10,628 nucleotides of DNA from a virus (IMGVR_UViG_2547132488_000018:1-10628); one strand, 5' to 3'. Positions 128-8,248 are shown, numbered from the stretch's first letter. Notes: generated by a model not told the origin, from the sequence alone. A program made the numbers and translations.

Positions 128-315
128 TTGATTCCTCGCAGTACTGTTTCCCCTTAACGCCGGGGGGGCGGAACAAAAACCTGCTGCATAGTTAAAGTTG
201 AACCCTGCCGTCATGTTCTTACGCCTCGGGCTGGCTACTTACCCCCTGACCACTGCCTGGTAACTCGAAGTATTGCCCTGCGTTCTGTGGGGCGGGGTGG
301 GTTGGTGGAAATAAT

Positions 316-408: not shown

Positions 409-696
409 TCAGATAGGGAAGGGAAATTGTCGGCGGGCATGCACAATATTTGCAATTTCAATGCTTGAAGCTGCTACTCGGTACAAAACGATATAATTAG
501 GGTGAACCACAATTTCCCGCAAACCGGATACTCGATCACTTGGCGGATATAGATATGGATGCTCGGAGAGGGCTAAAACAGACGTTTCAATACGTATTTT
601 TAGTCTGCGTGCTGCAGGAATATTTTCCTTAGCAATATAGGCTACGATCTGACGCAAATCATCGCGAGCAGATGGTAGCCATAAAATGGGTAACAT
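409..696 (-). CDS. parE2: ParE/RelE-superfamily type II toxin (ParE2-like)
   Basis: 95-aa ORF (MLPILWLPSARDDLRQIVAYI...VHPNYIVLYRV...IVHARRQ) with a ParE-like residue pattern; its start overlaps the upstream antitoxin stop by 1 nt (ATGA coupling). Family assignment is from recalled motifs, not a search. Confidence 0.75.
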   Translation of the reverse strand: MLPILWLPSARDDLRQIVAYIAKENIPAARRLKIRIETSVLALSEHPYLYPPSDRVSGLREIVVHPNYIVLYRVAASSIEIANIVHARRQFPFPI

Positions 697-887
697 TACT
701 CGCTCCTGTTAGTTACAGCAATTTGAGCAATAAGATTTTCTATTTCAGCCATTACCTCGTCATGTGGAATTGAGGGACGAGGGTCTGCAAGGCTTGACGC
801 CACTTTAGCGCGCAACCATTCGTTGTAACTGTTTTCTTGTTCGGTAGTTTCGAATTCTGAAACTATCGGAGAAAGGGCTGTACTCAT
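696..887 (-). CDS. paaA2: Small antitoxin, PaaA2-like (63 aa)
   Basis: 63-aa ORF immediately upstream of and coupled to the ParE-like gene; the size and position match the PaaA2 antitoxin of the paaR2-paaA2-parE2 module described in E. coli O157:H7. Confidence 0.65.
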   Translation of the reverse strand: MSTALSPIVSEFETTEQENSYNEWLRAKVASSLADPRPSIPHDEVMAEIENLIAQIAVTNRSE

Positions 888-914
888 GGCATAACTCCTC
901 TTCTTGTACAGTGG

Positions 915-1316
915 TCACGCCCGGCGGCTTTTTTGTGCCGCCAACCACCGGGCAATGGTTTCTTCCATTGATTTTTTCTTGTCTTTGATCTCTTGAAGCA
1001 TTTTTTCTTGGTCTTCCTCTGGAAACGCACTAAAAGCCTGAAGCAGTTCGCGTTGGCGAGGACCAATTTTCATCGTGTCAGGGGTGAAAATTTGCTCCCC
1101 CTCTTCAGGTGGCAATAAAAACCAATGCAATGGATGCCCTGTAACCTCAACCAGTTTATCCAAACTTGAGGCTTTAGGTGTAGCCTTACCGCTGACCCAT
1201 TGTTGAACAGTTTGTTGTGTCACACCAATTCTACGGGCCAGCTCAGCCTGGCTCCATCCAGTTTCCTGAAGAAGCTTGCTGATTCTGTACATAGATACTT
1301 CTAGAGCGTTCATCAT
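915..1316 (-). CDS. paaR2: XRE-family helix-turn-helix transcriptional repressor (PaaR2-like, CI-analog position)
   Basis: 133-aa ORF with a classic HTH (SQAELARRIGVTQQTVQQWVSGKATP); first gene of the leftward operon and divergent from the cro-like gene. No obvious Shine-Dalgarno upstream of the ATG at 1314-1316, so possibly leaderless. Confidence 0.7.
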   Translation of the reverse strand: MMNALEVSMYRISKLLQETGWSQAELARRIGVTQQTVQQWVSGKATPKASSLDKLVEVTGHPLHWFLLPPEEGEQIFTPDTMKIGPRQRELLQAFSAFPEEDQEKMLQEIKDKKKSMEETIARWLAAQKSRRA

Positions 1317-6255: not shown

Positions 6256-6579
6256 CAAAGAAATGATTGAACAAAGAAACGTGGCGTTTTGATTTGCGAG
6301 TCGGGTTCAAAGAGGCTTTCCGCGTACTGCGGCCACACGGAGTTCTCATATTCAAATAGAACGATATGCAGATTTTAGCGTTCACTGACGTGAAACCAGC
6401 AATTGGCCAGCGCACCGGGAAAACGACACAATCCACTGGATTATTTTTGTTAAAGGCGGTTCGGTATGAAAATCAACTTAACAGAGTCAGCACCAGTAAC
6501 CGATAATGAACACGATCAGAGCCTATTGGCGCAGAGGGAATGATTTGAAATAGTAAGATCATTGATTGCTAAGTAAATT

Positions 6580-6603
6580 GTGCTGTAGTGGATACTACAG
6601 CAC
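6580..6603 (-). terminator. Perfect 10-bp stem / 4-nt loop hairpin at the 3' end of the minus-strand island
   Basis: GTGCTGTAGT GGAT ACTACAGCAC, 9 nt beyond the stop of the minus-strand gene ending at 6612. No clean U-run follows, so terminator function is uncertain. Confidence 0.35.
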
Positions 6604-6611
6604 TTCAGAAG

Positions 6612-7013
6612 TCACTTACTATTATTTTTCGCCTTGAGCATCGCGTTGTAGTACGCTATATGAACACTACCGAGCTTTGGATAAGGGACATTATTTTTTC
6701 TTGGTGCCTTAGAGAAAAACTCTGTAGTAAAAGGCAGGATAGATGTTCTGGCTAAGTCAAATTTAGTATCGTAGCTTAACCCAGATAGACCAAAAACATC
6801 ATCGCCATCAGCTTTTTGAATAAGAAACTCTGATGGGTAGAGTTTGTGTGTTTTTTGGCTCGTACCGAATGCAACTATGATTTCATGCTTTAGTTTCGAT
6901 ACACCTAATACCATACCTGGTCTCATTTTGGGAGTATCTCCCCCCCATTCTTCAGATGGTTGAAACCAAACAATATCGCCAGTCTTTGGCAATGGTTTTA
7001 TTTTCGAATGCAT
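6612..7013 (-). CDS. PemK/MazF-like putative toxin
   Basis: 133-aa ORF; the N-terminal GDIVWFQPSEEWGGDTPKMRPGMVLGVSKLKHEIIVAFGTSQ matches the MazF/Kid pattern (G-D/E-I, K/R-RP-x-V/L-L/V, then a hydrophobic strand ending TS). AT-rich codon usage; contains a G7 tract on the coding strand (complement of 6940-6946). Confidence 0.5.
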   Translation of the reverse strand: MHSKIKPLPKTGDIVWFQPSEEWGGDTPKMRPGMVLGVSKLKHEIIVAFGTSQKTHKLYPSEFLIQKADGDDVFGLSGLSYDTKFDLARTSILPFTTEFFSKAPRKNNVPYPKLGSVHIAYYNAMLKAKNNSK

Positions 7014-7021
7014 TTTTATAC

Positions 7022-7297
7022 CTACAATAGCATTTCGAAACTCTCATCCGGCGTTTGGTTAGTTTTCGATCTTTCATGTAGTGTCCGGAATTGAGCTTCG
7101 GTCAAGGGCCCATCATCTTGCTCATAAGCCGGGATGTATTTTTCCACTAAGTTTACGAGTGCAAAATGCATGAGGTCTGTTTTACTCATACCAGTAGCTT
7201 TCATTAGTTTTTCAAAGGATTCAGAACTGATACCGTTGATACCATCTTCTTCTTTGAATCTAAGGAGGAAGCTGTCAGGCTTTTTCATGCGTGACAT
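7022..7297 (-). CDS. Putative antitoxin / small DNA-binding protein (possible ribbon-helix-helix)
   Basis: 91-aa ORF 8 nt upstream of the MazF-like gene; AAGGAG Shine-Dalgarno on the minus strand; predicted strand-helix-helix pattern and an acidic C-terminal tail. The fold is inferred, not demonstrated. Confidence 0.45.
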   Translation of the reverse strand: MSRMKKPDSFLLRFKEEDGINGISSESFEKLMKATGMSKTDLMHFALVNLVEKYIPAYEQDDGPLTEAQFRTLHERSKTNQTPDESFEMLL

Positions 7298-7650
7298 AAG
7301 GACTCCTTAATGTTTAATTTCCGAACTGTATCTAAATCAAAAAGATAGTTATGCGTGTTTTGACCTACTTTAGACAGTGCTTTCACTTCAAGCATTTTGG
7401 ATCTTATGAGCTTATACATAATCGCAAGTTTGAAGACTATTAAGCGTGTAATTAACAAAATTAGCATAATCAATGGGATGCTAATTTTGAATTTTTCATT
7501 TTTTACTGAAACAGTTTGGGGAAGATTTTGCCCCCCCCGAACTCGAAGGAAGTCAAAGAAATGGCCATGTTTTTCAACTATATCTATTAAAAGTTGTTCA
7601 ATTCTTTCGGTGAGCATTAACATATGCTTAACATCTGTGCTTAAGGTCAT
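7285..7650 (-). CDS. Hypothetical small protein with hydrophobic segment; first gene of the island operon
   Basis: 121-aa ORF with an AAGGA Shine-Dalgarno; overlaps the next gene by 13 nt; hydrophobic stretch IPLIMLILLITRLIVFKLAIM; contains a G8 tract on the coding strand (complement of 7531-7538). Confidence 0.4.
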   Translation of the reverse strand: MTLSTDVKHMLMLTERIEQLLIDIVEKHGHFFDFLRVRGGQNLPQTVSVKNEKFKISIPLIMLILLITRLIVFKLAIMYKLIRSKMLEVKALSKVGQNTHNYLFDLDTVRKLNIKESLCHA

Positions 7651-7683
7651 AATGAATCCTTGTCGATAGAGATTTTCCCAATA

Positions 7684-7712
7684 AAGATATCAAAATGATA
7701 TCTTCTTTTCAA
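7684..7712 (-). promoter_or_regulatory. Candidate sigma70 promoter with overlapping palindromic operator for the island operon
   Basis: On the minus strand: -35 TTGAAA (complement of 7707-7712), 17-bp spacer, -10 TATCTT (complement of 7684-7689). Palindrome AGATATC-AAAAT-GATATCT (7685-7703) overlaps the spacer and -10. Confidence 0.35.
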
Positions 7713-7976
7713 GGTGGTTTTACTTTGGGAGCGAATGCAACAACTTCTTGCTATGTGTTGAGATCAATTGATACTAGGTGTCGAAAATCTTGGTATGAGG
7801 CTGTATGTTCTTTAGTTGTATATCATTGTTCAGGACTACAGCGTTAAGAAGTACACGAAAGACAAGCAAGCTGTGCGCTGCGGTCATGCTGTGCCGTCGC
7901 CGTTCGTTGGGTGTTGGTGAGGGCTAATTTGGCGGAGCTATACCAGTCGAAACGAATAGCAGCCTGACCTATAATT

Positions 7977-8002: not shown

Positions 8003-8248
8003 ATGTTTGATTTCAACATCGCAGCAAAATTAAAAGAAGAGCAGGACAAGGTTAGCGTTGATCTTGCAGCGTCCGGCGTTGCGTACAAGGAGAGCCTTAA
8101 TCAGCCAGTAGTTGCCGAACACGTAGCAAGAGAGCTGCCGGAACATCTGCGCGAATACTTCATGGACCGCGTTCGCCTTAGCCTGACACTGCCAAAAGCA
8201 TCCGATCCGTGTTATCTGGATATGGCAGTGCAGAACGAGAAAAAATAA
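8003..8248 (+). CDS. Hypothetical phage protein (81 aa)
   Basis: ORF with GAGGG Shine-Dalgarno 8 nt upstream; its stop overlaps the next ATG (TAATG at 8246-8250). Confidence 0.55.
   Translation: MFDFNIAAKLKEEQDKVSVDLAASGVAYKESLNQPVVAEHVARELPEHLREYFMDRVRLSLTLPKASDPCYLDMAVQNEKK

Follow-up and report, generated by a model that had tools for sequence, protein, structure and literature searches.

We analysed a 10,628-nucleotide stretch of viral DNA (IMGVR_UViG_2547132488_000018:1-10628; hereafter the window), in which an AT-rich island at positions 6612-7650 carries three small minus-strand genes, orfC, orfB and orfA, the last two forming a putative antitoxin-toxin pair. Two of the genes contain a run of G on the coding strand, tract 1 in orfA and tract 2 in orfC, and both runs differ in length among near-identical copies of the island from Escherichia coli. 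We propose that the two runs are probably genuine, recently arisen and slippage-prone, and that they act as passive hypermutable hot spots within a prophage cassette.

Two poly-G tracts in an AT-rich island

On the plus strand of the window, C7 and C8 occupy positions 6940-6946 and 7531-7538, so that the coding (minus) strand has G7 and G8 there. An initial annotation, made from the window sequence, had placed these runs inside two open reading frames of the island, and the coordinates are borne out; the island contains no other G/C run of at least 7. Tract 2 (7531-7538, minus strand) is an uninterrupted G8 in orfC spanning codons R38-G39-G40 (CGG GGG GGG). Tract 1 (6938-6946, minus strand) occupies codons W23-G24-G25-D26 of orfA (TGG GGG GGA GAT), in the predicted beta1-beta2 loop of the protein and just upstream of the invariant residue R31. 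Both runs encode Gly-Gly, as annotated. Tract 1 had been described as a G7, and a run of 7 is present there (6940-6946), but the full element is G7-A-G (hereafter G7AG); set against the other sequences, it is a synonymously interrupted form of the G9 carried by most E. coli relatives.

With a GC content of 37.5%, the island would be expected to hold 0.014 G/C runs of at least 7 and 0.0026 of at least 8 by chance, and two runs of at least 7 appeared in 1 of 20,000 shuffles of its sequence (P = 5e-5). The runs are thus as unexpected in AT-rich DNA as had been supposed, though the probability of a run of at least 7 is 0.17-0.20 per gene once the encoded peptides (W-G-G-D and R-G-G) and the gene's own codon pool are given. 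Because of this per-gene probability, we consider that the Gly-Gly context permits such runs without making them expected. A third G/C run of 7 (GCCGGGGGGGCGG), at window 162-168 on the plus strand and outside the AT-rich island, could serve to gauge, within the same reads, how stable a homopolymer is.

Tract lengths vary among near-identical E. coli copies

At the DNA level we compared 25 distinct copies of the E. coli type, all at least 99.2% identical over window 6501-7800, with lengths taken from assemblies and some loci picked through truncated proteins (L and P numbers are our labels for loci and contigs). At tract 1, 11 of the 25 copies carry G9, while G8 (-1) is present in CP024245, GCA_012831155.1, SRR1505428, GCA_018358385.1 and SRR14517489, G10 (+1) in GCA_017679105.1 and ERR4899556, and G7 (-2) in GCA_974498245.1. 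The G7AG allele is shared by the window, L043 (a 100% match), L036, L069 and L020, and a further interrupted allele, G5AG3, is found in L076. At tract 2, G8 is the commonest allele (16/25), with G7 (-1) in GCA_018358385.1 and SRR14517489, G6 (-2) in GCA_974498245.1 and an interrupted allele, GGGGCGGG (G4CG3), in 6/25. The initial annotation had named invariance of tract length across homologous islands as the observation that would speak against slippage; the lengths vary.

These changes, G7-G10 at tract 1 and G6-G8 at tract 2, recur on haplotypes that are the same or one single-nucleotide difference apart. One haplotype, defined by 54 single-nucleotide polymorphisms (SNPs) over 2.7 kb, carries the tract 2/tract 1 combinations G8/G9 (L001), G7/G8 (L071 and L074) and G8/G10 (L073), and a shared haplotype also unites L020 (G7AG) with L067 (G10). 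Changes of +1 and -1 on one identical SNP haplotype are a signature of slippage, in line with the suggestion that the runs are slipped-strand mispairing sites. We count at least four and up to six independent length events at tract 1 and two at tract 2. Over the 3-4 kb that the shifted assemblies share with the window, indels occur only at the two tracts, and the 9-12 other homopolymers of at least 6 in these loci are all unaltered. The length variants were recovered by independent pipelines, from NCBI assemblies and from Logan assemblies. Both L071 and L074 have a 13-bp insertion at the position of window 8415, downstream of a gene for a DNA polymerase III theta homologue, and they therefore represent a distinct lineage and no re-reading of the L001 haplotype.

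Interrupted alleles are without length variants (5 copies of G7AG, 6 of G4CG3), and the G7AG interruption is found on two unrelated backgrounds. The window's own tract 1, which had been put forward as a variable site, carries this interrupted allele and is no such site among the five copies. Because the changes are bidirectional, confined to the runs and recurrent on identical backgrounds, and because interrupted alleles are stable, we infer that slipped-strand mispairing causes them.

Out-of-frame copies amount to ~4-5% at tract 1 and ~1% at tract 2. One of 24 contigs is frameshifted at tract 1, in a sample that is neutral for this tract because it was chosen through orfC, and the 48-residue product of a -1 slip at tract 2 is present in 3 contigs (one has the protein background of the window itself), versus ~345 with intact orfC. 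The orfC-off alleles that we read are all toxin-off as well (3/7 versus 0/8 copies, P ~0.08), in two independent lineages only; the 58-kb contig with the tract 2 -1 slip in the window's protein background (P0062) may break this pattern. Of the stochastic on/off switching of the island that was first envisaged, the length polymorphism and the truncations are upheld, but ~95-99% of copies are in frame, and each slip disables one gene and not the island. Counts of truncated proteins were accepted only in part as counts of frameshifts, since the 104- and 100-residue calls are often start choices in intact alleles (such choices in intact G7AG or Citrobacter-type alleles are seen in L020/L068, L069, L076 and P0063).

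Predicted truncation of OrfA or OrfC by slippage

In orfC, a -1 slip at tract 2 gives a product of 48 residues and a +1 slip one of 51. The initial annotation had predicted that a one-base change in the G8 would truncate the 121-residue protein at about 48, and 48-residue reading frames are indeed present in natural contigs; the one called in the natural copy L074 is exactly the product of the -1 slip. In orfA, -1 and +1 slips at tract 1 give 29 and 43 residues. The alternative frames entered after these slips end within 4-18 codons and hold no conserved content. In the -1 frame of tract 1 the TGA stop overlaps the ATG of Met30 (ATGA; window 6920-6950, minus strand), and the G8 allele of this tract gains an in-frame ATG (GA-ATG-GGG), with annotated products of 104 and 111 residues. 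In intact G7AG alleles, gene callers often start orfA at Met30, probably because GGGGGAG resembles a ribosome-binding site.

In E. coli, longer runs acquire indels at an exponentially higher rate, and in K-12 the 8-bp G.C runs stand out as outliers (PMC8510543). Under the mechanism that we propose, nascent and template strands would misalign within a G run at replication, with the gain or loss of one G, rarely two. A slip at tract 1 would end the toxin ~25 residues in, with loss of the conserved Arg31 and Thr51, and a slip at tract 2 would cut OrfC at 48-51 residues; slippage would in this way leave natural E. coli with heritable knock-out alleles, at a few percent, on DNA that is otherwise the same. 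Interruption by a single base recurs (G7AG, G5AG3 and G4CG3) and seems to keep the frame stable. Most likely, the tracts would serve as a mutational escape hatch by which the host can lose a toxin that is potentially harmful, or the toxin's partner, rather than as a selected on/off switch.

The tracts are of recent origin

More than 20 Citrobacter-type copies of the cassette (94-95% identity) have GGGGAGTTG (W-G-V-D) at the position of tract 1 and GGGGTGGA at that of tract 2, and no G/C run of at least 5 was found anywhere in the cassette in the Citrobacter-type, Phytobacter, Klebsiella oxytoca, L063 or L064 copies. Since the Citrobacter-type copies and the more distant ones lack them, the tracts, on this comparison, arose recently in a single E. 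coli sub-lineage and are no conserved component of the cassette, and the idea of a conserved switch falls. Conservation of a tract across cassette-bearing lineages, which would be a sign of selection for mutability, was not seen, and interrupted alleles are frequent in E. coli.

The E. coli and Citrobacter-type sequences differ at 5 of 17 tract positions, against a background divergence of 3.3% (P ~2e-4); five substitutions within 17 nucleotides would thus have built both tracts in the one sub-lineage. This clustering test alone was kept. A second test, of whether all substitutions go toward G (Fisher P ~2e-4), was rejected as circular, because the tract sites had been chosen for being G. One Citrobacter-type copy, L027, has a 1-nucleotide deletion in the A4 run of CCCAAAATG at orfA codons 28-30, which inactivates the toxin gene; this lineage has no G tract, and its independent frameshift lies slightly 3' of the tract 1 site.

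Architecture of the cassette and predicted proteins

The island looks like a self-contained, autonomously transcribed three-gene cassette on the minus strand, antiparallel to the surrounding prophage genes, in the order promoter-like site, orfC, orfB, orfA and terminator-like hairpin. The promoter-like site (7684-7712, minus strand; TTGAAA-17-TATCTT with TG) precedes orfC (7285-7650, minus strand), the first gene, which encodes a basic protein of 121 residues and overlaps orfB by 13 nucleotides. The highly conserved orfB (7022-7297, minus strand) encodes 91 residues behind an AAGGAG Shine-Dalgarno sequence of its own, and a gap of 8 nucleotides separates it from orfA (6612-7013, minus strand), which encodes 133 residues; the hairpin (6580-6603, minus strand; 10-bp stem, 4-nucleotide loop) directly follows the orfA stop codon. 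A perfect palindrome, AAGATATCA-TTT-TGATATCTT (7684-7704), overlaps the predicted -10 element. Upstream of the first gene, GATATC-N5-GATATC is kept in all lineages (including L058, L059, L063 and L064) with diverged flanks, and each GATATC half-site is itself an EcoRV-type palindrome. Because the pair is kept where the surrounding sequence has diverged, it is likely to be an operator, for which it is our candidate.

OrfA is predicted to be a divergent MazF/PemK-like protein and a putative toxin. Pfam PemK_toxin matches 12 of 15 members of the orfA family with an expectation value (E) of at most 0.01 (best E = 3e-7), the NCBIfam MazF model matches OrfA weakly (E = 0.026), and a search of the Protein Data Bank (PDB) with the family profile aligned the N-terminal MazF motif (E = 5e-3). 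When a structural model of OrfA was compared to the PDB by Foldseek, the top ~44 matches were all MazF proteins, at weak scores (E 2e-3 to 1e-1; template modelling score 0.4-0.49). R31 and G50-T51-S52 are invariant across the family, and the RP motif at R31 aligns with the 'HRPA' of MazF; R31 and T51 may be the equivalents of MazF R29 and T52. The layout is that of a type II toxin-antitoxin system, with co-oriented adjacent small genes, the putative antitoxin first, and with the pair occurring in prophages, in an element resembling an integrative and conjugative element (ICE) and in plasmids. The two proteins form an acidic/basic pair (isoelectric points 5.1 for OrfB and 9.6 for OrfA), and OrfB is accordingly treated here as a putative antitoxin.

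Neither OrfB nor OrfC has a match in Pfam, PDB sequences (profile searches included), PHROGs, NCBIfam or PADLOC. OrfC is predicted to have an N-terminal helix followed by a disordered linker and then a long helix, which includes a strongly hydrophobic stretch (residues 60-78), as in a small membrane protein; the structural model is of low confidence (predicted local distance difference test score, pLDDT, 59; predicted template modelling score 0.27). Against PADLOC-DB, none of the three proteins matched a defence system at E of at most 1, and the PHROGs, NCBIfam and PADLOC searches together gave weak MazF hints for the cassette and nothing further. A literature search by accession found no paper that mentions the cassette proteins.

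Distribution and genomic surroundings

The island is present in 4 of 5,426 complete E. coli genomes and is common in draft assemblies, where 1,157 blocks of the collection list orfB and 451 list orfC. Prophages of E. coli, Citrobacter, K. oxytoca and Phytobacter carry all three genes together, as do a short contig with an integrase gene (L064) and an element with TraG (L063), and protein-level co-occurrence on shared contigs suggests that the module is also present in Pantoea and Pectobacterium. A further 52 plasmids, mostly conjugative Klebsiella plasmids, carry an orfB-like and toxin gene pair (44% identity) beside IncFII repA, and no orfC. In one of them, the K. pneumoniae plasmid pCuAs (L086; NZ_CP006663.1, 2207-2929), homologues of orfB (94 residues) and orfA (142 residues, 44%) are found and no orfC-like gene lies upstream of the pair. 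The plasmid pair without orfC points to a core consisting of the toxin-antitoxin-type pair orfB/orfA, with orfC as an accessory of the prophage and ICE versions.

In the phage collection, no DNA or protein match to the cassette was found, and therefore no cultured phage there carries it. A peptide-based scan of genome contigs with the 133-residue protein gave 149 pattern matches and 0 relatives. A gapped DNA pattern across tract 1 matched 9 times in genome contigs, all by chance and in unrelated phyla; in metagenome contigs, 2 of its 11 matches were true copies. Insertion sequences of the IS66 family and of the IS3/IS110 families flank the cassette in some copies (L083 3887-5366; L023 321-1441 and 5239-5276), a sign that in several strains this part of the prophage may be in decay or undergoing remodelling.

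In the window we recognise the early-right region of an E. coli prophage of the lambdoid (YdaS/YdaT) type. Its genes run from a cI/Cro-like pair through replication genes, DUF977, DUF4406, the island, the DNA polymerase III theta homologue and DUF968 to RusA, the last gene of the window; in related prophages Q comes directly after it. The theta (HolE) homologue (8003-8248, plus strand; Pfam E = 9e-25) lies directly downstream of the island and is divergent from it. A frameshifted, N-terminally truncated S-adenosylmethionine-dependent methyltransferase pseudogene (window ~6268-6470; L001 4768-4970) abuts the terminator end of the island; it is annotated by RefSeq in 4/4 complete genomes with the island and may be a scar of island insertion. 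A further toxin-antitoxin cassette, complete and of the PaaR/PaaA2/ParE type with three components, lies at window 409-1316 on the minus strand and is made up of a ParE toxin (409-696, minus strand; E = 7e-16), a PaaA2 antitoxin (696-887, minus strand; Pfam E = 1e-21) and a helix-turn-helix cI-like regulator (915-1316, minus strand); the window therefore contains two three-gene toxin cassettes.

Discussion

Several points weigh against reading the tracts as passive hot spots. The lengths come from assemblies, so some may be homopolymer miscalls, and the GCA_9744982xx/83xx assemblies as well as CP024245 may derive from long reads alone. Because some loci were picked through truncated proteins, frameshifts are over-represented among the variants. 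Both tract 2-shifted lineages show an equal shift at tract 1 (-1/-1 in L071/L074, -2/-2 in L065/L072), and since the shifts are of the same size within one assembly they fit a homopolymer-undercalling platform equally well as a toxin fuse. Five clustered substitutions that build two runs in one cassette are odd for a pure by-product. As for the proteins, OrfA of the window scores 20.3 bits against Pfam PemK_toxin (PF02452), below the gathering cut-off of 23.1, its AlphaFold (AF2) model is of moderate confidence only (pLDDT 65), and the toxicity of OrfA and its neutralisation by OrfB are predictions from sequence.

A possible but unlikely alternative is that the tracts form an adaptive contingency locus, selected for reversible stochastic switching of the toxin and, separately, of OrfC; such switching might toggle an abortive-infection or addiction function, to the benefit of the lysogen or the phage. 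The same clustering of five substitutions, one of them Val to Gly, into two runs within a 1-kb cassette favours this idea, as do the expansions and contractions on identical haplotypes, the occurrence of in-frame alleles in all four combinations, the tract range of G8-G10, which is that of classical phase-variable genes (PMC8355987), and the precedent of Pgl, in which a G8 tract controls a toxic defence component (PMC4365076). It is countered by the lack of the tracts in every other cassette lineage, by off alleles at ~1-5%, where contingency loci typically have populations mixed for on and off, and by interrupted, stabilised alleles that are common and recurrent, the window's included. Furthermore, no reversion from off to on was seen among the copies, PADLOC held no defence-system match, and E. 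coli mismatch repair should hold G8-G9 switching well below classical rates (PMC8510543). A bolder form of this idea, that of a contingency locus caught at birth, with selection having built two independent poly-G switches, one in the MazF-like toxin and the other in its membrane-protein partner, within one prophage lineage of a mismatch-repair-proficient enterobacterium, strikes us as doubtful; if true, the cassette would have four heritable, interconvertible states, and the interruptions would be a counter-move that locks a state.

It is improbable that the tracts are real and their length differences mere sequencing or assembly miscalls, although the initial annotation had named the runs as possible error hot spots. 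The equal shifts in both tract 2-shifted assemblies keep part of that concern alive, megabase contigs in some records suggest long-read data, and several platforms have their greatest difficulty with long G runs. The concern is weakened by the recurrence of variants in at least six SNP- or indel-distinguishable lineages from different sources, by +1 besides -1 changes, by the agreement of NCBI and Logan assemblies (L071 = L074, L066 = L075) and by the intactness of every other homopolymer of at least 6 in those loci. Invariance of the interrupted alleles argues in the same direction, and most of the draft accession styles appear typical of Illumina surveillance projects.

Programmed recoding, in which the G runs would be sites of transcriptional slippage or ribosomal frameshifting with alternative products per allele, could draw on the ATGA at Met30, the A-ATG-G that the G8 allele brings into frame and the Shine-Dalgarno-like run with its Met30 calls, but it is very improbable and largely refuted by the lack of conservation of the runs in homologues, with the early closure of the alternative frames, the Arg that replaces Met30 in some Citrobacter-type copies and the conserved GDIVW strand that N-terminally truncated products would lose also standing against it. 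Our ranking of the four readings accordingly descends from passive hot spots to contingency switch, assembly artefact and recoding.

As passive hot spots, the tracts can be set beside known systems. Homopolymer contingency loci of Campylobacter jejuni and Neisseria (hmbR/hpuAB) likewise have uninterrupted G8-G10 in the 5' part of a reading frame, and in both cases changes of +/-1 between near-identical strains shift the frame and truncate the protein (PMC8355987, PMC3786947). For Campylobacter tracts of G8-G11, the switching rate is 1e-4 to 1.6e-3 per division (PMC8355987). Unlike those loci, the cassette tracts occur in mismatch-repair-proficient E. coli, where the mechanism is rare, and in one recent sub-lineage, with off alleles at a few percent only and stabilising interruptions common. 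Campylobacter differs from E. coli in lacking mismatch repair.

In function, the nearest parallel is the Pgl (BREX-type) phage defence of Streptomyces coelicolor, for which the passages of PMC4365076 that cite Sumby and Smith 2003 describe a phase-variable G8 in the toxic pglX. Loss of the protective PglZ selects pglX contractions from 8 to 7, or expansions, which inactivate the gene and so rescue the cells, and switching was measured at 1e-2 to 1e-4 (PMC4365076). Both systems have a G8-type tract in a multi-gene module with a toxic component, here a predicted one. As in Pgl, the orfC-off alleles read occur only with toxin-off alleles (2 lineages), a coupling that would fit a fuse blowing once the toxin becomes harmful. 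The proteins of Pgl, which include a methyltransferase, a kinase and a phosphatase, are unrelated to those of the MazF-like cassette.

With type II MazEF/PemIK systems, the cassette shares a small acidic upstream gene, a basic downstream gene with a predicted MazF fold, tight spacing, a palindromic candidate operator over the promoter and, in the plasmid pair, a position beside replication genes. It differs from them in that OrfB has no antitoxin-family match, OrfA falls below the Pfam threshold, and the prophage and ICE cassettes carry a third, upstream gene for a predicted membrane protein, orfC, without a known MazEF counterpart. Another E. coli prophage accessory gene that is put in or out of frame by the number of copies of a simple repeat is neuO, the O-acetyltransferase gene of the K1 prophage CUS-3, which undergoes phase variation at a high switching rate through a heptanucleotide repeat. 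There the unit is 7 nucleotides long and present in many copies, unlike the mononucleotide runs of the cassette.

Frameshift polymorphism by slippage is a known phenomenon; this instance is new, its host is an uncommon one for it, and intermediates are extant. Repeat-mediated frame switching is central to adaptation in Campylobacter, Neisseria and Haemophilus. To our knowledge, it is rarely documented in E. coli, where invertible elements and methylation are used. For annotators, the finding means that the toxin gene of the cassette is often mis-started or called a pseudogene. For the biology of these bacteria and their prophages, it means that absent, interrupted and full G8/G9 states coexist in public genomes with +/-1 and -2 variants, a compact natural system in which to follow the birth of a hypermutable site, how fast it fires in a repair-proficient host and whether a toxin fuse is of benefit.

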